A DNA stretch of 63,633 nt, filler included, from Globobulimina sp. (GCA_003354225.1; 22 parts of 22 records of this genome joined end to end with filler, not necessarily neighbours in it); one strand, 5' to 3'; numbered from the whole stretch's first letter, positions 16,538 to 59,153 are shown. Notes: generated by a model from the letters alone, not told the origin. Numbers and translations are program-made.

Positions 16538-17298
16538 ATGAACAATGTTACCAAGAAAAGAAAGTCACAATTATTGGTAAGTGGATACGTCAGAAAATGC
16601 AGGACTCAGTACATCCACGGCCATACGGATATTATTAGTATCATTCATGCATTTCATTATTACATTCTATTGATATTATATTCTATTGGCGGGAATGGGA
16701 GTGGACAGCAAGGAAATGGAGGAAATGAAGATATTGGAAAAATAACAAAAATAAAAACATTTAAAAAAGAAATAAAGAATATTGTTACTTGTGGTGGGAG
16801 CTGGAGCCTTTATGATGAGGCAGCAACATTCATTTTATTTGATGATGGAACATATCAATGTTGCGGTTATAATAAAAATGGTGTTTTGGGTGTTGGGCAT
16901 TATAATAATATTAAGATATGGCATCAAACAAAGGATATGAAAATAAAAAATATATTCGCTGCACCAAATGGATCAGAACATGCATTTTGTATTTCAAATG
17001 AGAATAAATTGTATGCGGTCGGATTGAATAATAATAATAAATTTGGTGTAAAAACAAATGAAGAAAATAATAATCAGTGGACACCAATTAATACAACATT
17101 ATCGATTCAAAAAGTAGAAACAGCAGGGTGTTATACAACATTTTTAAGTACAAATGGGAAAATATATGTTGCTGGTTTTGATTATTATGGTCATGGTGGT
17201 TTAGGATTAGGTAAATATACCTTCTCATCACCAAATATTCAAGAAATGAAAATAAAAATTAAATTTAAGGATGTATCTTGTGGACGTGCTCATACCTT
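16538..17298 (+). CDS. RCC1/BLIP-II-like repeat protein, 3'-truncated
   Basis: YSIGGNGSGQQGNG, CCGYNKNGVLGVG, IYVAG...GGLGLG and DVSCGRAHT RCC1 repeats. Confidence 0.9.
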
Positions 17299-17489
17299 NN
17301 NNNNNNNNNNNNNNNNNNNNNNNNNNNNNNNNNNNNNNNNNNTTAATTAATTAANNNNNNNNNNNNNNNNNNNNNNNNNNNNNNNNNNNNNNNNNNNNTG
17401 GTTTGAGTGATGGACACTGGTCAGTGACTATATGAGTAACACGAACAAAACATTACACATTTAATTCAAAGTTTACATTACAAGGTCGA

Positions 17490-18488
17490 TCAAAATTCTT
17501 TTGCATGATCTTGGTCGCTATGTATCATATCTTGCTTATCATCCTTCTGATTTTGAGTTGGAGTCTCTGCTTTTACCCCATTGCCAGCCTCACATTGTAC
17601 ATTTCGAGTAAGATTATGATCATTTTGAATATGCTCCTTTCTTTGTGTCAAATGATTGACATGATTTTGAATTTGAATATGATTCCCATTATGTTTACCA
17701 ATATGATTTAATAAATTTGAATTTGATGAATTTCGTAGTAGGTTTGGATTATTATTGTTATTGTTATTATTTCTATTAAATAAATAGCTTTGCTGTGCCC
17801 ATGTATCCAAATCGTTTAATCCGTTCGATTGATAGTAATAATTAAATATTTGTTGTTGTAATTGTTGCCGTGTCAAATTCATGGCATTCATATTCGGCAT
17901 GGTTGGCATTGTAGGCATTGTTGGCATGGTAGGCATTGTAGGCATGTTTGGCATATTTGGCATTGGTGGCAATTGCGATGGATCTAAAGAAGCAATGGCA
18001 TCCATTGGATAATCCAGTGTTGATTCATAAGGAGTTAATAAGGGAGTTATTAATAATTGCAACACCTTTTCCGCTCCCTGTAATTTGTATTAATAAATGT
18101 ATAAAATGTGTGCAAGGATAATGAGAGTATGCCACTTAACGTTTGTTGAGGGCAGGAAACAATAAAATAAAAATATGACTTTGATGGATGAATACATCGG
18201 AATCCATTCTATCATGTCATACAACATAGATTCTATAATGTTATATGAGCCTAAAACGACCCAATAACTTAGATTTCGTTTCATTATGAGAGGATCGCAT
18301 GTTTTCAATGATTTATATGAATGATATACAGGACATACAAACATCACTAGATTAATTACAAAGGATTTGCCGAGTGATACGGACACAAAACAGACCAATG
18401 ACAATGTAAATATTAAAAGCAGGATGCGTTTGTTTAATGTCGTACGTTTTTCTAACCATTTCATAATAGCTGTGCACACAGATAACAT
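17490..18488 (-). CDS. REEP/DP1/HVA22-family ER-shaping protein with Met/Pro/Asn-rich tail (2 exons)
   Basis: FVCPVYHSYKSLKT...LSYWVVLG...WIPMYSSIKVIFLFYCFLP then GAEKVLQLLITPLL after a short intron. Confidence 0.85.
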
Positions 18489-18663
18489 ATTATGTACATA
18501 TAATCAAACATATAATGCATCATAAGTTAACTTGAACGCTCTAATCTGGCCTCTATCGTAGTCCACAAAGAACCACCTGCAACACCGTTCATGTTTAATA
18601 CGTTGTCGTTGTTAGCTGCTATAAATTATAAAAAGATTGTTATACTGATCCTTTATAAGCATC

Positions 18664-20197
18664 ATGTCGTTATCGCAAGCATGGATATTGTTGTTGATAA
18701 TTACAGGATCGCAGACGGACTCTACCCCACAAACCGATAAAGGCGAAGCAATACAGAATATAGAAGAACCAGTAAAAGACACACATGGCATTTGGCAATT
18801 GTCAGATCCTCAGTTTGATCCGTTTCTTGAATTACATGACAGTGTCACAGTATTATTTACCCGCGTCGATGATTTGTATAGTTATGCAGGAAAATATCAT
18901 TTTGATCGCGCCGCCCACATTTTACGTGATTTTCGGAATAGCAGCACGCAGTTTGCAGTGATTGAAGGTGACAGATCCTCCTCCAATATCCACGACGAAT
19001 TTGGCATTGACTATTATCCAACAGTCAAATATTGCCATCACGATTACTTATCGCCACAATTAACAAAGAATAACCAAAGTGGCTCTGACCATGACTGGGA
19101 AATACGTTGTCTTGATTACAATCATCACATTGTTGAATTGATGCTAGTTCGTTGGGTGGAAGGCCTAAACCATCAATGTTCGTTTACTATTAATGATGTC
19201 GGAGAGTTTGAAGCAGCAAAGAAGGCAAATGATATATTATTGATAGGTTTCTTTGACTCTTTTGACAGTTTAGAATTTCAATTATATGAAGACCTCTGTA
19301 AACAATACAAATGGGAACGTGATATTTGGGCATATGAGCCTTCATTTGCTGTGGTCAATACTGGCATAAATGGGCAATTTGCACATACACTCTCTGAGAA
19401 TGTGCCTGGTTTGATCGTATATTGTGAGTTTAAAGAACATGCATGGATTTATAATGGACCATTGGCAGATAGAGCTGCCATCCGATCCTTTATTGAAACG
19501 GAACGGTATCCCTATTTCACTCAGGTCACTGCTTTTAATTTCAAACAATACACGGAAGAGTTGGGTTTACCGTTGATTTGGGTGGCCATTGATGATGAAT
19601 ATGATGCCTATGTCAAAAGAGTGGGTAGATTCTATGAGCACTTTGGGATTGAATTCAAAGGTATTTATTGTTAATATTCAATAACACTTCGAATAATAAT
19701 CATAGTCAATGTTACTCTGAAAAGGCTATTTAGCGATCATATGGATATCGTCGCAGTCGTATATGGGCCATATAAGGAAGTTAGGCTTCCCCTTTGTGCC
19801 CGGCGTTATGTTTATTGATACAAAGAATAATTATAAGCAATTGTATGACCCACAAGCGAGCATATTGGATTTTGATAAAATAAAAATGTTCATACAGTCG
19901 TGTTTGGATGGTACTGGGACATTATTTATTAAGTCGCAGGATGGACATGATATGAATGCATTGCTGGAACAGGAAAAGAAGCAATTCAAGAAAGAAAATA
20001 TATTAATTAAGCATGTGAATGGCGATGAGTTACAAGCGATGTTGCAAGGCGATGAGGAGAAGTATGGGGAATATAATGTTGTTGTGTTTTATTATGCAGT
20101 TTGGGACGATAAATGTCAAAGATTCCAATGGGTTTATGAACGGATTGCTGAGTTGTTGTTGGATGGGGATGGTGCTCCGATGTATGATGATTTATTA
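18664..20197 (+). CDS. Protein disulfide isomerase-like multi-thioredoxin-domain protein without intact CxxC
   Basis: Signal peptide; FGIDYYPTVKY; b-domain LLIGFFDS; YNGPLADRAAIRSFI; FIKSQ linker; a'-domain FYYAVWDDKCQRF. Confidence 0.8.
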
Positions 20198-20297
20198 NNN
20201 NNNNNNNNNNNNNNNNNNNNNNNNNNNNNNNNNNNNNNNNNTTAATTAATTAANNNNNNNNNNNNNNNNNNNNNNNNNNNNNNNNNNNNNNNNNNNN

Positions 20298-22695
20298 GCA
20301 TCGTATCACAATGTAGTACAGGAACTATAAAATCAGATCCATTAGAATTAGCACAAATGTTTTATGATATTAATGATGAATTTGGTGAGTTGGTATTAAG
20401 CAATAATTTAAATAATATAATTGTTGGTGAAACTGTGTATATTTATATCATAAATCAATATGATATATTTGACATTGATATTTTAATAAGTAATGCTTTA
20501 TATGAATGGATTAACGACTGTCAATATTATAATGCACAAACAAATCAATGTGACACTAATCAGGATTGTTCGAACTGTTTGCAAATGTTATGGGGAGAAA
20601 CCAGATATATTGGCTGTTCATATGAACAATGCTCGACAACACAAATAAATGTTGTATGCCATTATTATTACGGTGCAACATATATTGGTATGCCATTCTT
20701 TTATGGGATGGTATGTGATGGCTGTAAATATAAAATTGACAGAAATAAATGCGATAAATTAGAAAATTTATGTTATGGATGCCCGTCAAATAATTATGAA
20801 TTATGTTACAATTCAGGGAATAAGAAATGTTACAATTCACCACCAAACACATGCATTGAAAGCGGTGTTGAGCACGATCTCCAATCACAAAGTTATATAT
20901 CTCTATATATTCACATATATGTGGTTCGGTCAAATATACATTTGATATACAATAGTATGTCCAATCAGAAATCCAACATTTGAGCCAACAGAATTCCCTA
21001 CAATATATCCGACATATTATCCAAGCAAATCTCACACTTTAAATCCAACTAAGAATCCTACAAATTATCTTTCGCAGCACCCAACACCATCACCGAGTAA
21101 ACATCCAACATTGTTACCAACTACATTCCCAAGCATAATTCCAACAGAATTTCCTACATTTAAACCAAGCATAAATCCGACATTACATCCAACATATAAA
21201 CCAACAGTCGACCCAACAGATTTTCCAACTGTAAATCCAACAATACAGCCTTCATATTATCCAAGCAATGTCCCAACTAAATATCCAAGTAAAATTCCAA
21301 CTCAATCACCTTCATATTTACCTACTGATACTCCATCCACAGTGCACCCATCAATATCCCCATCAATTCATCCAATAATTCTGATAAAAACACAAAATCC
21401 AACCATACTCCCTACGATAACACCTACATTGTATCCGACACATAAAACCACGCTTGTACCAACAAAACATCCTACAAAATATCCCATAATATACCAAACC
21501 ATAAATCCGACATTGTATCCAAGTATAATACCGACTACATTACCATCATATTCCCCCAGTACTATTCCGTCTACTTCTCCAACCAAAGCATATATTTCTT
21601 CAACCATATCACCGACATTTATTCAAACATCATATCCAACAAACCAACCAACACAAAATCCAACATCAACTCCAATAACAACTGTAATTCCCACATCTCA
21701 TCCAACATCGGCATCCATTAAATGTTATATTGTGCTAACAATCATACAAATCACGCGAGGATCAACGAATGAAATATGGATCATAATTGAAGGTAAATCA
21801 GGCAAAAAAATCAGTCCATTTGGATTACAATTATTAGTAAATGATAAAAATAATAAATACAATTTCACAATATGTGATATTAATGTCGGTGAGATCATAT
21901 CAGCCAAATTAGTCACATTTAGTAAATCCATTGCCCAAATTAAATTGATTCAAATTAATGCTTTGACTGCAAATATCGCACAAAATGGTGTAGCATTAAA
22001 ATATTCAGGCTCTGCAAACAATGGATGCTCTGTCTTATCTGTTGATTTTCACAATGACATATTATTACAAACTCAACAAATTCCCTGCCAAACAGTCATA
22101 ATTGAGGCAAATCCTACAAATGCCAACACAAACCAACCATCGATATCATTTGCACCAACAAAATATCCATCAAAATTCCCTCCTCAACATGCAACCAGCA
22201 CACCAAGTATAAATCCGACATTATACCCAACAGCACATCAATCTATAAATCCTTCAGATTCACATTCACATTCACCAACAAAGTAACCTATTTTAGCAAC
22301 AAGTGTCACAACACATTAACCTTAAACATTAGCTCCCAAACAAAAAACTGAAATTCCAACACTATCACCAACAAAGTCACTGCTTAAACCGACTCACTTT
22401 CCACCAATGAGAGGTATGTTAATGTTAACTATGTTTTGTTTTTTATCGATTATAATTATAAATGTATCTAAAAACAGTTTGGTGGAAACGGACATTTAAA
22501 TGGAGATTTGAGGATTCTTCTTCATCATTTTTCTATGATAAATCGAGTAGTTCCAGTTCGAGCAGTTCAAGTAGTTCCTCTTCATCTTTTTCCTCTTCTT
22601 CATCCTGGGATTTTTCTGGTACCGGTGTAGGATATGCATATAGATATCATTATGGCCGGGAATATATTCATCGTAATGACCAGAATGATGACTGA
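20298..22695 (+). CDS. Secreted CAP (SCP/PR-1) domain plus PT-rich mucin plus PLAT-like protein (multi-exon, partly disrupted)
   Basis: QMLWGETRYIGC...VVCHY (CAP motifs), Cys-rich hinge, PTxxP tandem repeats and GSTNEIWIIIEG...VGEIISAKL (PLAT-like). Confidence 0.75.
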
Positions 22696-22815
22696 CGTTG
22701 ATTGCAATTTGTTTTTTTTTGTGACCTATATATTTTTTATTGTTCACACGATGAATAATATAACTATTCATATTCAATCTTTATTTTTATTTTTCTATAT
22801 CTGTTGAAACATTGA

Positions 22816-23096
22816 TCAACTTGTTGTTTTTTTCAGACTTTTTAATACATATTGACTTGCGACAGCATCCCAGCTCATGTGTTTGGCGAGGTCATAGCCG
22901 TCCTGGATCATTGCCTCGATCTCGGTGTCGTTCTTTGCCAATCTTGAGCAGATCTGTCAAGGACTGCTTCTTCGAGGGCATCTGCCTAATCTCGCCCTTC
23001 TCCTCGGAGTATGGCCGCAGAGCCCTCATGGCGACCATCTCGTACGACTCTTAGCTGATGTTGCGAATGCGCTCGATCGATTTGTTGATTCTCTCG
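22816..23096 (-). other. GC-rich foreign-looking coding fragments at contig end (glycosyltransferase-like C-terminus plus an unrelated frame)
   Basis: Abrupt GC increase. QICSRLAKNDTEIEAMIQDGYDLAKHMSWDAVASQY resembles the C-terminal helix of GT-B/GT4 enzymes (xSWxxxxxxY). Confidence 0.45.
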
Positions 23097-23196
23097 NNNN
23101 NNNNNNNNNNNNNNNNNNNNNNNNNNNNNNNNNNNNNNNNTTAATTAATTAANNNNNNNNNNNNNNNNNNNNNNNNNNNNNNNNNNNNNNNNNNNN

Positions 23197-23798
23197 TAAT
23201 ATCGCTGCAATTTATTGAATATTGAATATAATTCATTTTTTCGCACTGTATTTTGGTTATTTTGTTCATGGTCAGACTTGGACTCAGGCTCAGCCTCAGG
23301 TCGATTCTTATTTTTTGTATTATTATCGTTTTTTGCATGATTTATAATATTATTTTTTGTTTTGTTGGTTTGTTCGTTTTTTTGTTTAGCTATATTTCGA
23401 AGACGTGTTCTTATGGCACCAGCACTGCGACTAAATGTAATCACAAGTTTATTGATAATGTTATCCTTCAAATATGATGATGGGAAATCATTGATATATT
23501 GGACTAACACTCTATCTTCCTTTGCGCACCATTTTTTATTATGATTTTTTGCTTTGGTGTGTAGTTTTTGTAATACATTTGCATTTGTATTTGAGTTTGA
23601 GTTTGTGTTTCTCGTGGTTTTGAAATGCTCACTTGGATGATAATATGAACATATACGTTTGGTTAATTTCCAACACTTTCTACCGTATTTACAAGGTGTA
23701 TGCTGAAAGCTACACTGTCCAGTTTTGACATCTTCACAACGAAATGTCAGAGGACATGCTGGTACAAACACTGGGTTTACAAAAGACGACGTGTACAT
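23197..23798 (-). CDS. Tandem CCCH zinc-finger plus Myb/HTH-like protein, 3'-truncated
   Basis: CPLTFRCEDVKTGQCSFQH, CKYGRKCWKLTKRICSYYH and KWCAKEDRVL...FSRSAGAIRTRL. Confidence 0.7.
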
Positions 23799-23922
23799 TA
23801 TTATTATTAGTAAGTATAAGTATCTGTGAAAAAAGTCCTTGCACTTTGCACATTGCAGCAATCAAAAAATAAAATCAAACCCAAAAATGAAAGCAAAAAC
23901 AAATATTTTACGGTATACACAA

Positions 23923-25967
23923 CTATGATATTTTAATGGAAGCACCAATACTTTTCCTAACAACATTTGCATTCCACACAGCCGATGACTTAACAAGTTT
24001 GAATGGATTATGTGCCATAAATTGATTGTTACCCTCACTTAATTTAATAATTCTCCATTTATTATTTGGATGGTCTAACATCTCCACTCTGTATTGAATT
24101 TGTGTATTTTCTTTATTTTTGTTATCAACCACAAATTGAGAAGCCACATAAATACAATTATCGTCAGAATCACACCACACTGCCGGGAATAGGCCATGCT
24201 CATAATTTAAATCTTTAATCTGTATATGACTCCATGTGCTTGTACTGATATTATACAATTCATTATGTTTACTGCTCTGATCCCCTTCACATTGTCCTCC
24301 AACCACAATGACACCAAACCCTTTCCAAATACAACACGCTGCTCCATATCGATTATACTTTGACCCACCACTTTGTTTCCATTCCCTTTTCTGTGGATTA
24401 TACATTTCCACCGAATTTGTCCAATCTCCATTAACAACCTCGCCACCATACACAAATAATTTCGTTGGTTTGGTGTCAAAGGTACACATACAATGTCCAA
24501 ACCTATAAAAGATTTTTTTTGTACATGTAACTAAAGCTTGAAAGTTTTTTGTCACTTCGTACTTATATATACCATGTCGACGCGTGTCAATGGTATAAAG
24601 TATCAAGTGACAAAACATATAATTTACACTTCAAACCTGGCCTTATTCATAGATTTCAAAGGTTTCCATTTACGTTCACTAAATGAGAATTCTTGACAGA
24701 TATTGGTCGGTTCGAAGTTGTTATTTTTTATATTCCCGCCAGTGACACACACTCGACCATAAAACATGGTGCATGACATATTCTCTCTGTAAGGCAATAA
24801 CTCACCAATCATAATCCACGAATTACTAAACAAATTATAAATATCTAATCGGCCACATAATATGTTCTCATTCGTACGACCAGCAATACGAATAATGGAT
24901 AATTTCTTGTTGACATTGCGCAATTTATGCGTTAATAGTTCATCATTATTCATATTATTAATTGCATTTATATCATCATTGGAATTATGCATACCGTTAT
25001 TGTCATTTGTAGGGTGTTTAAATCGTATAAAATCAATGATTAATCCACAAGATTCTGAATCTGGCGGCAAGGATTGCGATAATATCGCTTTTGAGCCACT
25101 AATGGGATCAATAAATTGCAAGGATTCATTGCCCACAATACTCACAAATCCGTTTACAAATTTTGAATCTAATTTGTTTTTTCGCTCTTTTAACACCACA
25201 ATGACCGCGCGCAATAAACTAAAACTCACTAAGTGGAAGTCACTGAATGTGGATTGAAACACAATCAAATTACATTCACGCAATCCATTTCCTTCATTAA
25301 TATTCATTTCGTCACTAATTTCGTCAGTTTTAGACTCGTTTTGTTTTGCTTTCAATGGCAATAAAATATCTTTATTTTTATTCACAATGTCAGGCGGCTT
25401 TGTCGGTAGATTCATATTCGTCATCTTTATATTAATTCGATCCCGACATCGCGTACGGACACAAATTATAAATTTCTTCTCAAATTCATTGACATTCCGG
25501 GAATTAAATTCAAATAACTCATCATTTGCTAATTGTTGAATTACAAGTTTTTCCATCTCTTGTTTTGATATTTTCTCATCGATATCGGTCATCATTTCCA
25601 GCTCCAAACTCGCTAAAAAAGTCTGTGTCATCAACTCTTGAAAATGTCTTTTCAATGCAAACGGTATCGACAATAATTTCGCATTTTTATTTTCTTCATT
25701 CTCGACTTTCTGCTCATCCTCAAACAATTCTTTTTTATATTGCTCCGGGATTTGCTCCTTTTCTTCTTTCAATTTTGCAATCTCAGATTCCTTTTCTTCA
25801 TCTTTTACAGCAACGCTTTGTACATCAATCCAACCCAAAGAGATCCAGGCCATATTCATACAAATATCCTCATTCGAATCCATCTTCGATTTGCGTTTCA
25901 TCCCAATTTGCAGCTCAATCTCTTTCACTCTCTGTGTACGCACCACATCCTTCCGTTCATTGGCCAC
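23923..25967 (-). CDS. Kelch-repeat protein (2 or more exons)
   Basis: VCVTGG...QEFSFSERKWKPLKSMNKAR, LFVYGG...VEMYNPQKREWK and VIVVGG...ELYNISTSTW. Confidence 0.85.
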
Positions 25968-26109
25968 AATATTCGCGAAAAACTTATCTAATTTANNNNN
26001 NNNNNNNNNNNNNNNNNNNNNNNNNNNNNNNNNNNNNNNTTAATTAATTAANNNNNNNNNNNNNNNNNNNNNNNNNNNNNNNNNNNNNNNNNNNNATTCG
26101 TTGTGGTGG

Positions 26110-26410
26110 TTATTCGTCAGACCATCCGCTAAGCGGCCAAAGCGTTTCTAAACTGCACCATCTTGCAACGCGACATCGAATTAGAGATCACGAGTACGGT
26201 CAGCACGCAAGCGCCCAATCGTAAGTTTAACCGTGGCAACAAAAAGCAGCAAGGCCAACGCATTCTGAATTTGGATGGACATATCTATTTATTCGATTTG
26301 GGTATGGCTGTGCCTCTCTGAGTAGGTCGAGCGTGCCTGCCACCTTTGAGAAGATCGCCAGAGATGCAAAATTGGGCATTTGGCACAGCTTCCTCAAAGG
26401 TGATGATGAC
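26110..26410 (+). pseudogene. Degraded staphylococcal-nuclease-domain fragment, Tudor-SN/SND1-like
   Basis: AAKAFLNCTILQRDIELEITS and FIRFGYG...FEKIARDAKLGIW match SN-domain motifs (LQRxVxI; AxxxKxGIW) but are separated by stops. Confidence 0.55.
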
Positions 26411-28993: not shown

Positions 28994-29779
28994 TCTACCA
29001 TATTTACCACATCCCCATGACCAAACACAATAATTATCATCAATTGCTAACGTATGATCACATCCACAATATATATCCTTAAATTTTATTTTTTTTATTT
29101 GAATTTCTTGAATGTTTGGTGATGATTCAATATTTTTACCTAATCCTAAACCACCATAAGCAACATCAGAACCAGCAACATATATTTTGCCATTTGCACT
29201 TAAAAATGTTGTATAATACCTTGACGTGGCTACTTTTTGAATCGCTAATGATGTATTAATTGGTGTCCACTTACTTTTTATACCAAATTGATTCTTATAA
29301 TTCCCTCCGACAGCATATAATTTATTCTCATTTGAAATACAAAATGACTGCCATGATCCATTTGGTGCTGAAAATATATTTTTTATTTTCATATCTTTTA
29401 TTTGATGCCATATATTAATATTATTATTATGTCCAAGACCTAATACACCACTTTTATTATAACCACAACATTCATATGTTTCATCATCAAATAAAATATA
29501 TGCTGCTACACCACCATAACCACCACAAGTAACAATATTTTTTATCTGTTTTTGAAATGTTTTTATTTTTGTTATTTCTTTAACATCTTCATTTCCTCCG
29601 TTTCCTTGTTGTCCATATTTGTTTCTACCAATAGAATATAATTCCAATATTTTATATGTTGTATAATGGAATGAATGAATGATACTAATAATATCTCTAT
29701 GGATGTACTGATGCGTGGCGTTTCTAACGTATCCACTTATTAATAATTGTGAGAGTCTTTTTCTGAGAGCATGGTTCAT
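28994..29779 (-). CDS. RCC1-like repeat protein, close paralog of 16538-17298, 3'-truncated
   Basis: Near-collinear identity with the 16538 ORF (e.g. QQGNGGNED, ILFDDxTYxCCGYNKxGVLG, FCISNENKLYAVG); DIYCGCDHTLAIDD..VWSWGCG. Confidence 0.9.
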
Positions 29780-45178: not shown

Positions 45179-46159
45179 ATGAAAGTTTTTTCTAGACAAT
45201 GTCCAAAGCAAACTGCGTCCCGGCCTAGGTTCTCTCGTGCAATTACCAATATATTCCAAGCAAAACAAGAAGAATTTCACAATGCAATATCTGAAAAATT
45301 GAGTGACTTCCGACCACCTAAAATTACAATGGATCATAAGGCAGAAATTGTATCATACGTTCAAAGAAATTGTATGGACCTACATTCATCAAACATTATT
45401 GAAAAATTATCAATGGATTTTATCAATGCGGCATCACAAAACGGGACATATGATGCGTTGTCAAATCCGCATAGTCGTAAATTGAACTTAATTGAGTGGT
45501 ATGTTGATAAGTACATTGATTTTGATTGGTTGCCTCAACCATTGTCATCTGAACACGCATTGGAATATTCCCAGCTGGCATCAATTGAATATGATGAACA
45601 GTTAAGATTTATTCCATTGGGGTTTGACATTAAATATTATGGAAATCATTCATTTATTAAAATTGAAAATAATTTGGGTGGCTGTTATGCAATTTTACCA
45701 AATCAAAACAAAGAGAAAAAAGGTAAAAAATTATTATTATTAGATTTGGATGGAAGTTTAATAGATTTTAATGTGGAAAGACCATATTTGAAGGAATATT
45801 TGCAATTTTTATCCACAAGATTTGAAATTGGTATACATTCGGCAGGATATGATATGGATGAATTGGTTGATAAATGGAACAGAAAATATTGCAATGGAAA
45901 CATTACGTTTTATATTTGCAAATCACATAAGTTTTTAAGCTCCTTTGCTATGAATAGAGCACATTTCTTGCACCTTGATGATGGTGAAGGTGGTAATCAA
46001 TATCGATGGATACAAATTAAACAATTCGATAGATATAAACGGGAAGATAATGAGTTACAGAAATTTATGGAATGGTTGCAAATTTATCATGATTTTGATG
46101 GCAACGACTATGACTTTGTTGAAATGTTCCCACCGACCGCATTTTTTCAAAAAGAGTGA
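45179..46159 (+). CDS. HAD-superfamily NIF/FCP1-like phosphatase domain protein
   Basis: KKLLLLDLDGSLI, RPYLKEYLQFL...FEIGIHSAG, LHLDD and DNELQK. Confidence 0.75.
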   Translation: MKVFSRQCPKQTASRPRFSRAITNIFQAKQEEFHNAISEKLSDFRPPKITMDHKAEIVSYVQRNCMDLHSSNIIEKLSMDFINAASQNGTYDALSNPHSRKLNLIEWYVDKYIDFDWLPQPLSSEHALEYSQLASIEYDEQLRFIPLGFDIKYYGNHSFIKIENNLGGCYAILPNQNKEKKGKKLLLLDLDGSLIDFNVERPYLKEYLQFLSTRFEIGIHSAGYDMDELVDKWNRKYCNGNITFYICKSHKFLSSFAMNRAHFLHLDDGEGGNQYRWIQIKQFDRYKREDNELQKFMEWLQIYHDFDGNDYDFVEMFPPTAFFQKE

Positions 46160-46526: not shown

Positions 46527-47877
46527 TTAAAAACATTTCCTGTGAACCAATCCCGGACCGTACTCATCATACTCATCTTTACACATCAACAACTCTTCAA
46601 ACGTCGATAACGCGCTCAAAATAGACCCACCAATCCACGCATTATATTTCCTGCAAACCAAACCCCTGCTAAATACACCACCATTTGACGCATCCTTAAA
46701 TTTGCCATGAATCAGACCTGCAATATCTCGACAAATATAGCCCTCACATTCACGCAAATACCCATCCACCACCTTATATGTATCCATATTTCTTTCCACA
46801 TTTACCTTTATTCCACGAATCCCGCCGGATACTAATAACCCCTTCATCTCCTTCATCAACCTATCATCCATTCCTTTAAACGCCATACTCCCTCCACTTA
46901 ATACAATATTTCCCAACAAAACACCTTTCAAATCTGCACCACATTTCATAACAGAATCATACACCATTTCGTGCACTCCCTCACACGTTTTATATTCATC
47001 CCTATCCATCATAGCTGGCGCAAATAATGCCTCTGAACATTTAAATCGCTCCTTATTGATCTCAACCATTTGTCCATCTGGCAACTCATACTCGCGCTGG
47101 ATACTTTTCTCGCGTTGGCATTCTACGCATTCATCCTCATAATTCAGCGCCGTGTAACACAATTTCTCCTTAATATCCCTCACCTATATCATCCACAGCA
47201 TGTATAGCGCAAAAAAAACAGAAACGAAAACATACAATTTCTCTCTCGGCAGTTGTAGTGAATGAATATCCTTTTTCTGTCAATATTTTCATAAGATATT
47301 GAGTTAAATCCTTGCCACTCAAATCAAGCTTGTTTACAGCATATCGAATGGCATATCCTTCATAGATTGGGACCGTTGTTGTGGAGCCATAGCCAGAATC
47401 TAATACCACTCCGCTGGTTTTGCCCGAGGCGTATAATGATAATACAGACTGAATGCAGGCATAATAAGCGGGAACGTTGAAGGTTTCAAACATAATTTGG
47501 GTCATTTTTTCTCTGTTTGGCTTGGGGTTTAAGGGTGCTTCAGTCAGCAATACACTATGTTCTTCCGGTTGTATTCGTAACTCATTATAAAATGTATGAT
47601 GCCATATTTTTTCCATATCATCCCAGGATGTTACGATACCGTGTTCTATGGGATAGCGTAATGCTAAAATGCCTCTTCTTGACTGTGCTTCATCACCAAC
47701 ATAAGAATTCCTTTGATGCATTCCAACCATAACGCCCTGATGTCGTGGTCTGCCAACGATGGATGGAAATACAGCTCTTGGCGCGTCATCTCCGCCGAAG
47801 CCTGCTTTCATTATTCCTGATCCGTTATCAATCACTAGACTTTGAGCTTCTTCGTCGTATTCTTCTGAATCTGTCAT
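46527..47877 (-). CDS. ACT: Divergent actin with an approximately 40-aa insertion near the C-terminus (intron 47184-47235)
   Basis: [49 protein letters not shown] and [22 protein letters not shown] across a 52-nt GT-AG intron; WIGGSIL...HRKCF. Confidence 0.97.
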
Positions 47878-48008
47878 TTTGATTATACTATTTAAATTTC
47901 AAAGAGACAAAGTTTAAGCAAGTTTTTTTGTGATTAATATTCGGAATAAGTCAGATTGCCTTGCCATGGATGATTCGTTTATAATTATGTCAATGACCAC
48001 TTTAAATT

Positions 48009-49080: not shown

Positions 49081-49368
49081 GTGTCTCTTTATTGACCGAG
49101 CATCAAACCCGCGATGAAGAAGAACAAGCGAACTTTTTTGTCGACGTATTCAACAAGGGTAGTGCNNNNNNNNNNNNNNNNNNNNNNNNNNNNNNNNNNN
49201 NNNNNNNNNTTAATTAATTAANNNNNNNNNNNNNNNNNNNNNNNNNNNNNNNNNNNNNNNNNNNNTTAAACCCATTTTTCTGACCCTTTGAATTGTGGAA
49301 ATAGAGCTGGACGAATCAATGTTTTTTTTTGTTGAGTTTTGTGTAATCAACTTCCTCTACAACTGAAC

Positions 49369-49745
49369 ATGGCAACTCCTAAGTTTAATTTATACATTTT
49401 TGAATATCTATCAAACAACAAAAAATCAGAGATAATGTAAAACATAGACAACAGAGACAGCAACAGGTATCATTGGAGAGTTCTGTACAAGATGAGAAAT
49501 ATCCGGTGAGATTTCATTGGAGTCATGGTGGTCGTGATGTATATGTAGCATATTCAGGTGATAATTGGTCACAACAATATCGAATGCATCGTAGTCATAA
49601 TGATTTTAGTTTAACAATGGGGATTGGCGCAGGTGTATATCATTATAAGTTTATAGTTGATAATCAATGGCGATGTGCACCTGATCAGAAACACGTACGT
49701 AATGCCAATGGTGCTTATAGCAATGTGTTAGATGTTCGGAGTTAG
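49369..49745 (+). CDS. Stand-alone AMPK-beta-type glycogen-binding (CBM48) protein; truncated tandem paralog
   Basis: ATG 49369, intron at about 49383-49428, in-frame MATPKDNVKHRQQRQQQVSLESSVQDEKYPVRFHWSHGGRDVYVAYSGDNW...YHYKFIVDNQW...DVRS then stop. Confidence 0.8.
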
Positions 49746-49873
49746 ATGTTTTTGCAAGAATAAATAACAGTTATTTGATCGTTATTCAGTGCTTCAGTTA
49801 TCTTGTTTTTTTTAGTGTCATTATATTTTTGTTAAAAAAAATGTTTTCCAGTGTAATCAACTTCATCAACAAC

Positions 49874-51416
49874 ATGGGAAATACGTCCAATCCAAACCCT
49901 CCACCAACTCCCCAGTTAATCCATTTTTTTAATATCACCACAACATAAAAAATCATGTACCAAACAACACAAAATCAGAGAGAATGTAACCACATTAGAA
50001 ACAAGATTAAAAAAAATCCTCCATGATCCCACAACCCCTACACCCAAACAAGACATAAACACATTTGGAAATTTTCAATCACAACAAAGGCCCAACAATC
50101 AATACACCCAACAACAATCATATCAATTTGCCCAACAAACACGCGCAAACAACCAACAATACGTTAACATACAAATATATGTTGTTTAATATCCTCGCAC
50201 TCAAAACAAAAAACAGAAAGCAAACCCGTACGGATATCAGTCAACGCAAGCCACAGTCCCGATGGCGCCGCCAATCCAATCCAACCCCTCGCCCGACCAA
50301 TTACAGATGCAGTTAGAGGCACAAATGCAGCAATTACGTCTGTTGCAACAAGCACAGCAGTTAGAACGCCAACGCTTAGATTTAGCGCGGCAACAAAGAG
50401 ACTTAGAGGCCCAAGCTGCCTCTCAACAATTGCAACAACACGAAATCATACGCTTACAACAAAAGCAAGCACAGAGACTACACATTCAACAACAGCAACA
50501 ACAGCAGTTACAGCAAGCCGCCCAAGCTGCAGCACAACAACAACAACTACACCATCAACAGACACAGGCACAAGCCCAAGCACGCTCAGCTGCCGAGGCA
50601 CAGTTACAAGCACAATTAGAGGCAAAACAAAGACTACAAAGGCCGCAAGCACACAGCACACAGACCCAACAGCAACCGCTCCAACAACAGGCAGCAGTGG
50701 AGAGTCCCGTACAAGATGAGAAATATCCGGTGATCTTCCATTGGAGTCATGGTGGTCGGGATGTGTATGTGGCATATTCCGGCGATAACTGGTCGCAAAA
50801 ATATCGAATGCATCGCAGTCATACTGATTTTAGCCTGATTATGGAGATTATCCCCGGTGTGTATCATTATAAGTTCATAGTGGATAATCAGTGGCGGTGT
50901 GCTCCGGACCAGAAGCATGTGCGTGATGTGAAGGGAGCGTATAGCAATGTGTTGGATGTTCGGAGTCATTCCTATCAACAAGTCATTGACGAACAAAAGC
51001 GTGAAAGGAAAAGAAAGAAACAGAAAGCACAATATGAGTATACACAGAATTTGCCCAAATCTGACCATTACGTACAGGATCCACCCATATGCCCCATACA
51101 TTTGCATAAGGTTATATTGAATAATAATAGCGAGGATGGCACGGATAGCATCAGCATCGATGATGGGGTGGAGGAAGAGAGTGATTATAATAATAAAAAA
51201 AAAAAGAATGGCAAAGTGCATACGATGGAATTGCCGACGCCGTTGCGAGTGAGTTTAAATCATTTGTATGTCAGTGATAAGAGAGAAGAGGAGGTGGTGA
51301 CATTGGGAATGACTGAGAGATATAAGGATAAATTCTTCACCACTGTTTATTATACACCTATTGATTCGAGAGGACAAATGGAATCTACGTTTGAAGTGTC
51401 TAATAATTATTACTGA
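49874..51416 (+). CDS. PRKAB: AMP-activated protein kinase/SNF1 beta subunit (3 exons)
   Basis: MGNTS myristoylation-type start, Q-rich linker, CBM48 (YHYKFIVDNQW) and ASC/AMPKBI domain (PPICPIHL, LPTPLRVSLNHLY, RYKDKFFTTVYYTP). Confidence 0.93.
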
Positions 51417-52162
51417 GGTTGGTGTAGTTGCCATGGTAATGTTATAAATAGTAATTTTGATAATTTTCAGTATCAAAAAATGATTTTGAAAAACAAAATT
51501 AGCCATTGATGATTATACATACTAAAAAAATCTTTTTGTGTGTGTTTGTGTGTTCTAATTTTCTTTTTCGTTTTTTTTTTAAGTTTGGTGTCTTTTTCTG
51601 ATTGGTTCATCTCATCATTATGCTAGTCTTGGATTGCATTTGTAGAGCAGTTGGTTAGCTAAAATTCAAAAACGCTTTAAATGCGTCTAGCTAATGGCAG
51701 TTAGAACAAGAACAAAATTTGCAAATAATGAGTTACATTTCCTGTGTTGATTAATTTATGGGATACTTTAGAATAGGACGTGTTTAGAATATTGCCTTTT
51801 GGAAATTTTTGATTTAAAGAGCTTATTTTAAACTCCCCATGTTTTAAATTCGTGATGTATAGAATATTACATTCATTCGCCCATAGGCTATAAACAGGCA
51901 GTGTTTCAAAAACGAAATGTTTTGAATTCAAAACTGTAATTTTAAAAACAATGTGTTTCAAACAGGTCATATTCTAAAGTATTGAATAATATCAACCTGG
52001 ATAAGTTAGCTATTCTCATTGGAGATTTAATAGGTTACTTTCTCTGTAGGTTACTTTCCCNNNNNNNNNNNNNNNNNNNNNNNNNNNNNNNNNNNNNNNN
52101 NNNNTTAATTAATTAANNNNNNNNNNNNNNNNNNNNNNNNNNNNNNNNNNNNNNNNNNNNGT

Positions 52163-53467
52163 GAGGAGGGCAATGAATTAATCTACGGAGTGAGCAAATT
52201 CCCGCATATTTCTGGCTTGCGATTGGTGTATGACCCCATCGCGGACAATTGACATAAAATAAAATCTATTTGGATTCATAAATGTAAAGCAAATAAGTAT
52301 TTTGAATTAATGGATGAGGAAATATACTCAGTAGCGAGCAGCGAGAGTTTGTATCTCGGCGGTGATGGATATAAAATATTGATGGACCCAGTGGCTGTTA
52401 TCCGTGACGACAAAGAAAGTATCAATGCACACATGATATTGATTGGTTTTTTCCGCAAAATTAATGAGTTGAATAACTTGAAATTGTTAATTAAAGGAAA
52501 TAAAATCAAAAATAAGCGGAAAAGTAATAATAAAATTAAGCGGTTGTCGTTAAAGTATGAGAAGTTGCAGTTTGTTGAAACGAAATGGGTCTCTTCGTTC
52601 CAATTGTTGTCGAAGAGAAAGGATGGACAGTTATCGCCGACCAATGATGAGGAGGTCGAGTTAGAATTTCATAAATCGGAGAATGAAATGAATGAAAACG
52701 AAACTAAAACATTGTTGAATGATGTGGTGGATGACAGCGATGATGGCAGTGATATTGAGTTAGGAGCAGAGCACGAAGAGGAACGGGTTGATGAAGAGGA
52801 GGAGGAGGAGGTGGAGGACGATGGCGATGTGGATGATGGCAATAAAGTGTTGGAGAAACCTGCAAAGCAAGAAAACAAATTGAAATTGAATATGGACAAA
52901 GAAATAATGAGAGAGAAATTGCAGAATATTAAGAAGAGCGGGCAGATTAAATTGAATTTAATGGGTAAAAAATTAAGGAAATTAGCGATTGAGTCTGGGA
53001 ACGAAATGGAGAAATTGAGTGAAAAAACGAAACATTTTATAAATGCGAACATTAAGAATGAAAATAAGGAAATAAAGTATGACGCGGATGGGAATATTTT
53101 GGATGTGGAGATATTTATAATTAAACCAAAAATTGATAGTCGGATTATGACGGTTCAACAATCAGAGTCAGAGTGTAATAATGCGGTGGTTAATAATTAT
53201 GGCAATATCGAGGATGAAGATAAAAGACAGAAAATATCGGAAGAAAGTAATGAAAATAACCCACCAGAACGAAGGAGGCAGAGCAAAGCAAAATTGTTAG
53301 TTTCCAGATCTAGTCAAATATTTAAAAACATTGAATTTAAAAAACCCAAATTTAATAAAAAAAAATCAAGAACGTTGATTGAGAATAATGATACGGACAA
53401 TGATAATGATGATAATAATATAAACAAAAAAAAGAAACGATTTAAATTTAAAGGATTTCGAAAATAA
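52163..53467 (+). CDS. 5'-nucleotidase C-terminal domain plus long charged tail; one in-frame TGA at 52250
   Basis: KFPHISGLRLVYDP...[TGA]...YSVASSESLYLGGDGY matches 5'-nucleotidase C-domain motifs FPQVSG and GGDGY. Confidence 0.7.
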
Positions 53468-55054
53468 ACTGACTTCTTTTTTTTTTAATAGTATAGTTAT
53501 AATTGTGTTTGGTGTGAAATTACAACGTAATATAATATTAGAAAAAGCAAAAAAACAATATTACGAAGTATAGTTTTAGACATCATTTAATTTTTCACTT
53601 CAACTTAAGACAAAAGGAAAAGTGAACATGTCACTCTGCAAAGCGGTCAAGTTTCGTTTTTTAGCGGCCCAATTAACACCAACAGAAACACTTGGATGTG
53701 ATGCTGATAATATATTAATAATATGGTCATCAGTATTGAATGGATTAGAAGCAATTGAATTAAATGGAGAAGAAAACGATGATATTGATATTGCTAATTT
53801 TCTGCAGTCTGCTCATTTAAATGTTGATAATATCACAAAATTAAGATGCTCAAATTTTGGAGTCTCCAATGATTTTCCAGCTGATAATAGTATAATATTC
53901 AAATTGTTTTTTCGAGAAAGACCTTGGAACCCAAAGCGATGAAAATACGGCAGGTGGTGGAGAGTAAAAAGAGGAATAATAAAAAATAATATGTCATCGA
54001 TCAAATGGTACCGTATTATCCGGGGACCCCTCGCGCTGCCATCGGTTGCATGCTTTGCCGACGTACATAACTTTGATGCGGTGATATTTGCACATGTTTG
54101 CCATTCAAACTGCGTTTGGAGGCAACTGAGTTAAAATCAAGTCTCCGTATTCTCCACCGCTGTGTCCTCATTGTTGAAGGCTGGGATCTGTCCACTTATA
54201 TCATGATCAGGCACAGCCACATAATTATAATTATAATTATTATAGTTTCTGTTTGGTTGCTTATATGGCAGCGACTGTGACTTTGGATGTGTTGCTTGTA
54301 AACCAAAATTAATAAAATCATGTCGCAACTCAGCATAATTAACATTTAATAATTACAGTGGCCAAAGTCTCGAGAATGGCCTGTCTGAAAGGCGTATATC
54401 CATAGATCCATAATTGTAACCACTCCGATTGTAATAATATATATTTTGCAAATTTGAGGAGTACTTTGTCCGAAGTATCGTTTGACTGATTTAATATTTG
54501 CATCATTGAAATGTATCTGGAAATCCTCTAAAATATCTTGTCTTAGTTGCCTTTGTGAAACATTCATGTTTAAGTGAAAAAAAGTTCAGTAAAAGAGAAA
54601 AGTTAAGTATATATACATGGCACACTGCCAGTCACTGTAATTATATAATCTCGATCCAAAATTACAACGCAGTAATAATCCAACCATTCCCTTTCCACAA
54701 TGGCAACAATATAAAATACGGCATATTAACGATAGTAACATCAAAATGATTTATCGCTATGGCTGTAATTTACCTAAAAAAAAACATAATATTCGGAGTT
54801 TCGTTAAACAAATACGTGTTATTATTGCCAGTGTGGAAACATAATCTTTTTTGTATTGTTATGGCGCCAGTTATCAACATAAGAAACCACACAGATTGAG
54901 ATTCAGCACTGGTTTTGGATGGAAACAGTTTGATTATAATTATTACAGTGACTGNNNNNNNNNNNNNNNNNNNNNNNNNNNNNNNNNNNNNNNNNNNNTT
55001 AATTAATTAANNNNNNNNNNNNNNNNNNNNNNNNNNNNNNNNNNNNNNNNNNNN

Positions 55055-57642
55055 TAAACCAAACTGAGTGCACGAGCCATGATAACCAGTCCACGAACAT
55101 ACATTATCCAAACTATTTGGCATAAAACGCGAATAATACCAATTGTTATGAATAGATTTAAACATAAACTCATTATTAAATTCATAAATATCACTGTTAT
55201 CTAAAATGGATGAAGTGTGAAACCATTTCTTTGTTTCAAAATAACTTTCATTAAATGTATTTTGTATGGATAATAAATCAAAACATGGATAATAATCGCA
55301 AATCAGTCTGCAAACAGCTATGGGAATTATAAGATTCAGAGACTGACAATGCTTGCAAATGAAACCAAATACTAATATTTCATCATCAATCGATACTAAA
55401 TTATCCCATTTTGCTTTGTTGTATCGGGCTACATTATTTACTGAAAATATTGCATATTTTGCTGGCGATTGTATATCATTATAAATGTACATATTTATAT
55501 CTCCATCCATTGCAATCATATTCTTTATATCCTTCAATTTATGCTCAATGCAACGATATTGTCCCATTGCAAATGTTTTTAAAAGATGGTCAATCTCAAA
55601 TGAATATATATTTTTATTAATTGGCTGCTTCGAATGTATATTTACGTGGTATTTTTCCAATTGACAATATTCAAAAATAATATTTTTTGTGGCATTGTTC
55701 AATGTCTTCAACTCACAGTCTGTACATGTCAGCAAATAATGTTTCAATACTTTGTAATATCCATACCATCGTTGAATAAAGTCACAAAAAGCTTCAATCA
55801 ATGCCAATAATTGCATCATACTTAAACAATCAAACCCTAATTCTATGCATTTTACTTGATTTTGGTTTCGAATCAATTCACAAAATGTCACTAAATGTGT
55901 CTGCAGATAATGTTGCTCAAATTCCCTCAATGCAATACAGTCCATATTTACATCCGCGTTGCTACGAACAGTGTTTATTATTTCCTTGATTCCTTTCGCA
56001 TTTTTGTCATTTTTGTTAAACAATCCATTGATTTTAAGTTGTTTTAACTGTTTGCTGTGTTTTAAAACAGCACAAATGTTTGACATATTATCATTATCCC
56101 AATGTGTGTCTGGAATATCAAATATTAATCGCTTTAGTTTGGGGAAAGTAGCGCAATCTGAAAATAACTTGTTGCAAAATTCAGCATTCAATACGTTTTC
56201 CACATTTGCAGTCAATGAAAGAGTCTCTAACTGTTTCCGTTTAGAGACAATGCATTGTATCAGAAACGAATGTAATTCGTTCAAATCTTTTATATGAATA
56301 TTACTCTCAAATAACAATACTAAATGATTCAAATTGTGTACCTTTTCCTGAATACACCAAAACAAATCACATAATTTACGTTGGCAATCATTGGATACAT
56401 TGGCAATACAAAATTGAAGCGATTTCAACTTACGATTAAAGTCCATCGCTTTCACAAATAAATCCCACGCATTTTGATGATTATTCATCCATGTTCGCAG
56501 CAACAAATCATCGACATAACAGTCAAATTCTTGCACAAAGTTCAAAGCGACAGCATGCAGCATATAATTATTACAATCGTCCATGCTACGAAATGGCGAC
56601 TTAGTAATTACACATTTCCTCAGCTTTGGACACAATATATCTTTAATCACATCATATATTGGTTTAACAGCAAAATTCTCCATATACAATTCTGCAACGT
56701 TGGTCTTAGCAAAATATCGGATAATATCGCAAATTCGAGTGACAGACACATCATTTCTTACCATATCATACATTAACTGCATATCTAAACATAATGGATT
56801 ATCCAAAGCATATCCACCAAATAGGTCTAGAAATGGAGCATTAATGATGCCTGTGATCACATTATGCATTGCCAGTATATTGCTATCCATATTTAAATAT
56901 AACATATTTTGTCCAGGAATAACGCTTAAATCTTGTTTAGCTATGGATTGCTTAACTGTGTCAATCAACAATTTATTGATGTTAACGTTGTTCTTGGCTG
57001 AGGTTTCCATGAATAACATCCCCATTTTATGTGCCCATTGCTGTTTATATATAAGTTATAAAAAGAATGTGCGAGGATATAAATGCATTATATTTGCTAT
57101 ATAGAATGGATAACTTTTGCTTTGTTGCATTTGACCGCTCGATATTGATTCTTATCACATTGATTACCAACTAACACTAAAAGACACTCTGATGATATAA
57201 TATCAGTGAGTAATGGCAACCATTTTATTTTGATATTCTGGAACGTCACAACATTGGTTATATCATAAACGAATAAGACTACATTGGCAGACTTTGCATG
57301 CGTCGATAATAAATACGCAAACCTTTGCTGCCCGGAAGTGTCTATTATCTTACATTGGATGGCAGTGTCAAATACATTGATGGTTATATTTTCAAAGTCT
57401 ATGCCCAAAGTTTTCATATAAAAATCCAAATAACCATCGTTGCCAATTTGTCGGGTTATTTTTGTTTTACCCACACCACAATCACCAATTATCACAATTT
57501 TACATTCCTCCTCAGCTTCAACCTCAAGCTCTTCTTGCATATCAAAACCTTGTCTTTCTACTATGTTTCTATTGCTGTCGGTGGTGCTGTCATCATCCAG
57601 GTTGAGAATATATGTTCGAGAGGGTGCTTGAGCTGTGATCAT
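55055..57642 (-). CDS. Rab-like small GTPase fused to a large LRR-like region (intron at about 57042-57114), 3'-truncated
   Basis: GDCGVGKT, TLGIDF, DTSGQQRF, LVGNQCD, and after the intron FMETSAK, then over 600 aa with LxxLxL repeats (LKSLQF, LNHLVL, LETLSL, LKRLIF, LKQLKI). Confidence 0.85.
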
Positions 57643-57968
57643 GAGTCAAGTTTATAGTGGTACTCAGCTAAAACTTTCAATTATGCCTTTGCCTAAAAGT
57701 AAACAGAAACATTTGTGTGGGGGTGTGCTCTGTCTGCTCTTTTGTGTGGGGTGGGCTCTGTCTGCTTTTGTGTGTGTCGTCTAACCTAAACTCTAAAAAT
57801 AATTTTTTTCTGATTGGTTGACTCGAACATATGTGTAATCACTTTATNNNNNNNNNNNNNNNNNNNNNNNNNNNNNNNNNNNNNNNNNNNNTTAATTAAT
57901 TAANNNNNNNNNNNNNNNNNNNNNNNNNNNNNNNNNNNNNNNNNNNNGCACTAATTATAACAATCCGT

Positions 57969-59153
57969 TTGACCCAGGGATGGTTGAATTTTTTTAAAGA
58001 ATATTCAAATGTAATCAAAAAGCAATTATACATAATATTATTATCATTTATTTTTTATCCGATAACTGTAACATTATATTGTTGTATTGGTTATTATTTA
58101 CACAATACAATATATTCGACAATCTTATGGCTATTTGTATTGTCCTCTTTTTTTGTTTTAAGAATTATTCGCTTATTGCAATCTGAACAAAAAAACAAAG
58201 CAAAAAAGAAAAAATATATCAAAGAATGTCTATTATTATTATTGATATTAAACTGTTTATGGACTGCCTTTCATTTAATATCAACAACAAAAAATAACGC
58301 CACGTATATAAAGTATATAAAAATAACATTATTCATAGCCATATTTCTGTCGCATGGCTTTTTATTTTTTTTATGTCAAAAAGGTTCAATTTCTGTCACT
58401 TTAAACCGCGATCCGTTAAAATATGTTTACATTGAACGGGAACCATTGTATGCGTCATTATTATCGCATATACAATGCAAGAAATTGGTATTTCGATGGA
58501 TTCAATACAACGCATTTAATCTTAACCCCAATCTTAATCTCAATTCAATTATTCCAAAAGTTGTGAAACAACTTTGTTTCCGATATACATTCATCGATCA
58601 TCAGGATACGGCGTGGAAATTATTACATGGACGAAAATTAAAGAAGGATAAAGTGGATTGTTTGGAATCAATCTCAAAGTTATTATTTATTCAAATTGCA
58701 ACTGGGATTGGAATGTATTTATGTTCGCTTCTATATGGTTTACAAGTATTCTTTATGCAAAATGATTTGGTAACATTTGTATGTCAAATATTATTATATT
58801 TTGTATTAATTACAACGTTAATAACCTTTGCTATGATGCCTACGTTTAATGCCACATTTTATAATAAATTGTGTTGTAAATTCCATAATTTTGTTGAAAA
58901 GAAGGTATTGAGTTATTTGGATGATTCAAATCAAAATAATGATAGTTATCAAAGGAGATCGAGAATCAGCAGACATACATCACGGTCACGGCGGAATAAT
59001 ATACATAATGATTTTGTTGATGAAGGGACACTTTTAACAGAGCTGCCATCATTTATTGCTACAAGTAATATTGTCACTGAATTACATCTGGAGAGCAAAC
59101 AGAAAGAATCTACCATCGATGAGAATCACTCCCTTAAATTAGCTATATGTTAA
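57969..59153 (+). CDS. Multi-pass membrane protein of unknown function, 5'-truncated
   Basis: About six hydrophobic segments and a cytosolic tail beginning FYNKLCCKFH. Confidence 0.7.
   Translation: MTQGWLNFFKEYSNVIKKQLYIILLSFIFYPITVTLYCCIGYYLHNTIYSTILWLFVLSSFFVLRIIRLLQSEQKNKAKKKKYIKECLLLLLILNCLWTAFHLISTTKNNATYIKYIKITLFIAIFLSHGFLFFLCQKGSISVTLNRDPLKYVYIEREPLYASLLSHIQCKKLVFRWIQYNAFNLNPNLNLNSIIPKVVKQLCFRYTFIDHQDTAWKLLHGRKLKKDKVDCLESISKLLFIQIATGIGMYLCSLLYGLQVFFMQNDLVTFVCQILLYFVLITTLITFAMMPTFNATFYNKLCCKFHNFVEKKVLSYLDDSNQNNDSYQRRSRISRHTSRSRRNNIHNDFVDEGTLLTELPSFIATSNIVTELHLESKQKESTIDENHSLKLAIC

Follow-up and report, generated by a model that had tools for sequence, protein, structure and literature searches.

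The window considered in this study, a stretch of 63,633 nucleotides (nt) from the foraminifer Globobulimina sp. (GCA_003354225.1), encodes a protein module of about 40 residues that stands at the extreme N-terminus of two RCC1-like propeller proteins and within an insert of an actin. The same module heads an AAA ATPase from another foraminifer, Bolivina argentea. I consider the chances about even that it serves as a portable, lineage-specific tag for protein-protein docking, carried by proteins that are otherwise unrelated. An initial annotation, made from the sequence alone, had reported five firm copies and a weak sixth and had taken them for candidate adaptors of ubiquitin ligases. All six of its peptide strings were found again at their reported positions, on separate contigs. 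I will refer to those in the RCC1-like proteins as A and B, to that in actin as C, and to the remaining three, in other proteins, as D, E and F. Copies A, B and C hold up as members of one family, A and B being paralogues, while D leans to chance and E and F are at the level of chance.

The window consists of 22 unrelated contigs, 2793-2800 bp each, arranged in order of descending length with spacers of the form N44-TTAATTAATTAA-N44 between them. Since the contigs are merely joined by these spacers, neighbourhood across a spacer has no meaning. The gene content is that of an ordinary eukaryote (actin, EF-hand proteins, RecQ, AMPK-beta, Ras/Roc, Kelch, PPR), and the RCC1-like genes have their closest named relatives in two rotaliid foraminifera, Globobulimina turgida and Bolivina argentea. 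Six-frame translation gave 1379 open reading frames (ORFs) of at least 25 amino acids, 77190 residues in all, and it is to this set that searches of the window refer. The RCC1-like genes and their modules lie as follows, with positions counted from the first letter of the window.

16538..17298, plus strand: RCC1-like gene A (Pfam RCC1, RCC1_2 and WD40_RLD); the ATG at 16538 is the first in the ORF, and the gene is truncated at the contig end
16553..16675, plus strand: module copy A, residues 6-46 of the RCC1-like protein (KKRKSQLLVSGYVRKCRTQYIHGHTDIISIIHAFHYYILL), with the RCC1 body directly after it (Pfam)
16571-16657, plus strand: string A, the reported peptide
28994..29779, minus strand: RCC1-like gene B (Pfam RCC1 2e-13, WD40_RLD 9.9e-29), truncated at the contig end
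29645..29764, minus strand: module copy B, residues 6-45 of the RCC1-like protein, whose ATG is at 29779
29666-29746, minus strand: string B, the reported peptide

The bodies of both proteins match Pfam RCC1 over the cut-off (2e-8 for A, 2e-13 for B), and the module ends just ahead of the first propeller strand, LYSIG. Comparison of A with B gives 75% identity in the module (32 codons) and 73% in the remainder (200 codons), the nonsynonymous/synonymous divergences (dN/dS) being 0.168/0.364 in the former and 0.149/0.277 in the latter, the propeller. The module is thus conserved between the two paralogues as well as the propeller behind it.

Relatives were sought with sequence profiles. Profile A1 was built from copies A and B only; profile A2 adds the database relatives P0001 and P0002, described below, and excludes the actin copy; profile A4 is wider than A2. 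Copy A is among the seeds of A1 to A4. When A1 was run against 1,835,955,588 protein representatives, two matches were found at E<=0.001, P0001 and P0002. The former is a fragment of an RCC1 paralogue. The latter, at E 6.8e-4, is a 534-residue protein of Bolivina argentea whose body is of another kind altogether (Pfam AAA at residues 307-432; a match of 1.2e-9 to the D2 domain of NSF/Sec18). Its module is 42-50% identical to those of the RCC1-like proteins, and BLASTP delimits the module to about 40 residues (P0002 10-49 against P0001 7-45, 50% identity, E 2e-10). Among 809 candidates chosen by shared words, four reached E<=10, adding the RCC1 paralogues P0003 and P0004; P0001, P0003 and P0004 all have the same module at their start. 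The RCC1-like family has at least five paralogues in this genome.

A search anchored on P0003 brought in RCC1 orthologues from Bolivina, P0007 and P0008 (53% and 49% identical) together with P0009 (42%). The N-termini of P0007-P0009 are clearly recognisable though strongly diverged versions of the module, RLFVDGYIRQ... and ELLVIAYLS...KPVEIIRLIVAFC, and on the positional orthologues P0007 and P0009 profile A2 gives just 3.9 and 0.3 bits. As orthologues score so low, the module must be fast-evolving and all counts given here are lower bounds. Among RCC1 relatives from outside the foraminifera (P0010-P0015), none matches A2 at the N-terminus; three have internal matches only (E 0.48-2.2) and three have none. 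A word-index search with residues 1-45 of B, among entries of near length, gave no candidate, and the best match to P0002 residues 8-52 in the ESM Atlas (0.76) fell under the level taken as a lead. An A2-based pattern scan of a collection of metagenome contigs yielded 11 stretches, of which three were confirmed and two are true loci (L001 and L002, the contigs of two of the paralogues P0001, P0003 and P0004). The third, L003, on a contig from a Joint Genome Institute (JGI) metagenome, has QQLLVSGYIRW...HEYIH at 1584-1652, within a glycosyltransferase-like ORF whose surroundings resemble those of a prokaryote or phage; I judged it a chance look-alike, and it illustrates how easily the short core of the module recurs by chance. 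In the searches made here the module was seen only in rotaliid foraminifera, to which it appears to be restricted.

The nine members that could be aligned share an order of parts: first a basic patch, next three hydrophobic residues and G-Y-h-R (h, hydrophobic), then a variable loop, and finally a long hydrophobic helix. The first helix ends in [LV][LF][VI]xGY[VIL]R (the LLVSGY(V/I)R type), the loop often reads xxxYIHx, and the second helix, DIIxIIHxFHY..., is almost wholly hydrophobic. The Tyr of GYhR is the sole invariant column. A zinc site was considered and rejected, for the positions of His and Cys are not conserved in the alignment. The pattern put forward in the initial annotation, [LV][LVI]xG[YF]xR-x(5-15)-[IP]xxIxxL[IC]xx[FY], has no match in the 1379 ORFs, A and B included, and is an impression rather than a rule. 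A half-motif, [LIVMF][LIVM]xG[YFW][LIVMC][RK], occurs exactly three times in the ORFs of the window, in A, B and C, where 0.73 occurrences are expected.

The third of these occurrences lies in an actin gene, laid out as follows.

47234..47877, minus strand: actin exon 1 (ORF ending ...AEREIV; Pfam Actin 1.2e-72)
47182..47233, minus strand: actin intron of 52 nt, GT..AG (joint 47181>47234 in contigs of runs X1, X2 and X3)
46527..47181, minus strand: actin exon 2 including the stop codon (Pfam Actin 1.3e-44, in two stretches; PDB actins 1.9e-46)
46650..46790, minus strand: net 47-residue insert in exon 2, carrying module copy C
46698-46772, minus strand: string C, the reported peptide, within the insert

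Pfam Actin matches on both exons, and alignment to actins of solved structure confirms what the body is. Where PDB actin chain 4ci6_A has 12 residues, between positions 323 and 336, the gene encodes 59, just ahead of the conserved RKY...WIGGS, a site I take to be the linker that joins subdomains 3 and 1, beside the nucleotide site. When A2 was run on the ORFs of the window, the actin ORF ranked third, behind the seeds A and B, at E 3.1e-5 with a best domain of 13.8 bits; the insert is aligned to the consensus LvSGYvRnsttqYiHtDiIsIiha. Scored alone, the insert reaches 17.5 bits, a value attained by none of 3000 composition-matched shuffles (best 9.2). Furthermore, when phmmer is run within the window, B and C retrieve each other as the top match once paralogues are set aside (E 0.022 and 0.024). 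Recent transfer of DNA between A or B and the actin insert was rejected on account of the little DNA similarity between them.

Might the insert be an intron? No in-frame pair of GT..AG restores a canonical actin, and none of the three joints listed for four sequencing runs falls within the insert. Three of these runs (X1-X3) were guessed to be RNA, although none is recorded as such; they represent two organisms (about 96% identical). The fourth (X4) is DNA. Contigs of X1-X3 lack the 52-nt intron and their cover is confined to the gene, so that they probably do derive from RNA; the DNA data set shows no intron joint, and its contigs 46659-47192 and 47212-47422 extend into the intron. One contig of X3 (record 19, 46600-46912) spans the insert from end to end and reaches 50 nt or more beyond it on either side, and contigs of X1 and X2 cover nearly all of it. 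The relatives represented in X1-X3 have the insert without insertions or deletions; among the 40 of 92 differences that are listed, two substitutions fall within it, A155G and a silent change at F162. Because the insert is retained in contigs from which the neighbouring intron is gone, I conclude that it belongs to the coding sequence of an actin paralogue that is expressed, given the RNA status assigned to those runs.

Two further observations concern the actin gene itself. Just upstream of the insert, at 46808-46840 (minus strand), actin's own sequence recalls the first helix of the module, SQLLVSGYVRK, and gives an additional weak A2 match of 4.6 bits. This segment aligns position for position with normal actin, and its Arg is replaced by Gly in the relative that the run contigs represent; the likeness is probably a coincidence. 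Within exon 1, at 47405-47686, the summed depth of X1-X3 contigs rises to thousands, with many loose ends, probably contigs of other actin genes or organisms stacked upon a conserved region.

The remaining three strings are in the following places.

55289..55378, minus strand: claimed copy D, in the tail of a Ras/Roc-plus-repeat protein
58485-58508 and 58548-58586, plus strand: claimed copy E, in a membrane protein
45347-45370 and 45395-45421, plus strand: claimed weak copy F, in a NIF-like phosphatase

Run on the ORFs of the window, profile A2 recovers its own seeds A and B together with C, but D, E and F go unreported even at E<=100, and D is unreported by A4 at E<=20. The string in D, a protein described earlier as Rab-LRR, is present as claimed, yet it could not be established as a member: it scores 2.1 bits with A2 (153 of 2000 shuffles as good) and 4.4 bits with A4 (42 of 2000), hhalign assigns it a probability of 0.9-1.0% over the first helix alone, DDEILVFGFICK, it lacks the invariant Tyr, and it has Cys at the position of the GYxR Arg (Arg in eight of nine members, Ser in P0009). 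Given that A2 scores low on real positional orthologues too, its failure on D is no proof that D is unrelated, and I regard D as a marginal candidate that leans to chance. The copies in the membrane protein and the phosphatase, by comparison, turned out to be chance-level look-alikes: hhalign gives 0.1% for each, and both score near the median of their own shuffles (1117 and 1676 of 2000 as good for E, 789 and 724 of 2000 for F).

Other features of these proteins may be recorded. The best ESM Atlas match to residues 520-667 of the D protein (0.87) is to LRR-like fragments and falls under the lead level. A Ras/Roc domain is encoded at 57100-57645 (minus strand, E 1.8e-30), except for its last 30 residues, which open the long D ORF at 55055-57055 (minus strand). 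The roughly 45 nt that separate the two are probably a further very short intron. From there the protein extends over more than 640 residues without a Pfam family. Beside the membrane-protein gene of E, at 59335-60576 (plus strand), lies an uninterrupted ORF of 414 residues for a Cys/Met-metabolism pyridoxal phosphate (PLP) enzyme, E 4e-123, without introns and very well conserved. Elsewhere in the window, 17490-18089 (minus strand) is a low-complexity ORF with PNMPNMPTMPTMPTMP repeats and a run of Asn. Two ORFs on a single contig, 49404-49742 and 50190-51413 (both plus strand), encode one AMPK-beta carbohydrate-binding module apiece (1.3e-26 and 3.8e-27), accompanied in the second by an AMPKBI domain; they represent either a tandem duplication or exons of a single gene with two carbohydrate-binding modules.

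What might the module do? Its predicted form is a hairpin of two helices, a shape that seems likely from the AlphaFold2 model of P0007 (16 sequences), in which helices at 2-13 and 18-39 precede a confident propeller. A hairpin whose ends lie close together could cap an N-terminus, as at the start of the RCC1-like propellers and at the head of the Bolivina NSF/Sec18-like ATPase, or sit in a surface loop, as in the insert between subdomains 3 and 1 of the actin paralogue. The hydrophobic second helix would then be buried against a partner shared by the unrelated carriers, or against another copy of the tag. Since that helix appears too hydrophobic to be left exposed, a docking tag is the most economical reading. 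AAA proteins carry an adaptor-binding N-domain at the N-terminal place, and a tag found there in an NSF-like ATPase fits a docking role.

Several results weigh against this reading. P0002 is a single transcriptome-derived protein in a cluster of one, and could conceivably be a chimeric transcript assembly. The match in actin is significant at the scale of this window only (independent domain E-value 0.0032), and the DNA of the insert barely resembles that of the module in A or B. The RNA status of X1-X3 is the guess of a tool. As to shape, the N-terminal helices of the P0007 model have low confidence (predicted local distance difference test, pLDDT, of 45-60), and the module folded alone becomes one long helix (pLDDT 81.5, predicted template modelling score 0.39). 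Finally, the family as found is small: two matches at E<=0.001, four of 809 candidates, two true loci among 11 stretches. The very large genome-wide family foreseen in the initial annotation, set against two hits in 1.84 billion representatives, did not materialize in these searches, although they are insensitive and a larger, more diverged family may still exist.

Some of these same results bear on the alternative that the module is not portable at all but an N-terminal cap specific to the RCC1-like propeller family, the ATPase being a chimera and the similarity in actin a matter of coincidence or convergence. All strong-scoring genomic copies are indeed RCC1 paralogues, the module abuts the first propeller strand, the ATPase is known from one transcriptome record, and the actin match is modest (13.8-17.5 bits) with little similarity in DNA. 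The module of P0002, however, is only 42-50% identical to RCC1 modules and is nearer to the A/B type of the window than to the N-termini of Bolivina P0007-P0009, so that no donor for a chimera is in hand. Nor does coincidence sit easily with an insert whose score none of its 3000 shuffles matches and with a match between B and C that is reciprocal, and the P0007 model, with its low confidence in the N-terminal helices, does not place them on the propeller. I regard a family-specific cap as unlikely.

Equally improbable, in my estimation, is that the module is in essence a self-association element like RIIa/DPY-30, two copies of which would form a four-helix bundle that may bind the amphipathic helix of an anchoring protein. 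The size of about 40 residues, the two predicted helices and the N-terminal place on diverse bodies are all suggestive, and the 'LLxGY ... D(I/L)xxF..Y' look of the module may echo that of RIIa, a likeness not taken from an alignment. PMC8339350 describes the dimerisation-and-docking (D/D) domain as a four-helix bundle of ancient origin that many proteins other than kinases carry. On the other hand, neither RIIa nor Dpy-30 matches in Pfam at E<=10 and no PDB profile matches, the loop is longer than that of RIIa, and a copy internal to actin would be unusual for a D/D domain. Co-folding of two copies of the 48-residue N-terminus of B gave a score of 0.00 against a mark of 0.32 in a run that used no alignment and folded no controls, a result that favours neither side.

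The initial annotation had preferred an adaptor to cullin-RING ubiquitin ligases, akin to an F-box, a SOCS/BC-box or a cullin box. Its core idea of a short helical module common to unrelated bodies stands, and such an architecture would suit an adaptor. RCC1-like propellers serve in E3 ligases (HERC, RCBTB), the P0007 propeller finds its best matches in fold among the RCC1-like domains (RLDs) of HERC2 and HERC1, and a distant relative in sequence bears the name RCBT1-like in its source. The proposed kinship with F-box, SOCS and cullin boxes nevertheless found no support. No Pfam family (F-box, F-box-like, SOCS_box, LisH, RIIa and Dpy-30 included) matches the nine motif pieces at E<=10, and no F-box, F-box-like, SOCS_box or other such family matches the six whole ORFs at E<=0.1. 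Against PDB chains at E<=10, profile A4 found none and A2 found only LuxS, by chance, at E ~3. The comparison with F-box, SOCS and LisH that had been proposed thus produced no profile match in either collection. The F-box core LPxE(I/L) is absent by regular expression from all nine members and from D and E, and the BC-box consensus [APST]LxxxCxxx[AILV] is likewise absent from all nine. The proline of 'IP' or 'LP' that lay behind the perceived resemblance is missing from seven of nine verified members. The conserved GYxR element is not known to have a counterpart in F-box, SOCS/BC or cullin boxes. In addition, an NSF-like ATPase and an actin would make odd substrate receptors. I consider a ubiquitin-ligase adaptor quite unlikely as the specific role; an E3 ligase is only one possibility among others for the partner of a docking tag.

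Very improbable, lastly, is that the long second helix anchors its carriers in a membrane or acts as a signal that targets them to one, for although in A, P0002 and P0007 a basic patch is followed by a stretch of some 20 residues, most of them hydrophobic, this stretch contains Lys and Glu in B, the actin copy has no long hydrophobic run, the stretch continues straight into the first propeller strand, and a copy internal to cytosolic actin is unfit for a signal-anchor.

To return to the docking tag, its value is limited by the small size of the family as found and by the fact that half of the reported copies are unsupported. Even so, F-box, SOCS box and RIIa D/D domains are the means by which cells connect a multitude of proteins to a single machine, and every new tag of this kind has pointed to a new hub. 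For the present one neither Pfam nor PDB shows a detectable relative, and the searches made here encountered it in foraminifera only, a group with an unusual cytoskeleton and with scarcely any experimental molecular biology. Its most unexpected bearer is the actin, in which the tag lies beside the nucleotide-binding hinge. Actin is among the most insertion-intolerant proteins known, and an insert that is kept in intron-less contigs of such a protein offers a concrete experimental handle. A more far-reaching proposal, possible though doubtful, is that foraminifera evolved a docking hairpin that they place on signalling and trafficking proteins and in the hinge loop of an expressed actin, whose filaments would display the handle and recruit the shared partner. 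If true, this would amount to a lineage-specific wiring system for the foraminiferal cytoskeleton. The module and the actin insert are apparently undescribed: full-text literature searches aimed at the tag or at an actin insert in foraminifera turned up a description of neither, and no 'insertion' passage of PMC5455982 deals with actin.

It remains to compare the module with known systems. The RCC1-like domains of HERC2/HERC1, UVR8 and RCC1 are seven-bladed propellers like the one that follows the module in P0007 (pLDDT 85 for the model, in accord with the Pfam RCC1 repeats of the family). Foldseek aligns that propeller best to the HERC2 RLD (7q40_A, E 5.7e-32, TM scores of 0.79-0.89), and the matches to HERC2, HERC1, UVR8 and RCC1 extend over about 364-385 columns, gaps counted, of the 419-residue P0007 model. 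The resemblance is one of the host body, not of the tag, and P0010-P0015, the sequence relatives from outside the foraminifera, do not match the tag profile at their N-termini.

The other comparisons concern the tag itself. LisH, with no Pfam match to the module and with a long first helix before its G-Y that the module is missing, is likewise a short N-terminal helical motif with a G-[YF] turn. The SOCS box is usually C-terminal. The module is N-terminal or internal, and differs from the SOCS/BC box also in the absence of the BC-box consensus from all nine members and of any Pfam match; the boxes of the SOCS/BC/VHL kind are nonetheless short helical tags too, coupling diverse domains to one partner. 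The F-box differs in having three helices, where two are predicted for the module, in its LPxE, which none of the nine members has, and in the want of a profile match, but it shares with the module a helical nature, a size of about 40-45 residues, an occurrence on unrelated interaction domains and the xxIxxhIxxF rhythm of the second helix. A mode of action like that of RIIa/DPY-30 is an attractive analogy, in view of the account of D/D domains in PMC8339350 and of a resemblance that no profile supports. The loop of the module is the longer, and neither Pfam nor PDB gave a profile match, but both are helix-loop-helix elements of about 40 residues, both stand at the N-termini of many unrelated proteins, and the docking handle that the D/D domain provides is what is predicted for the module.

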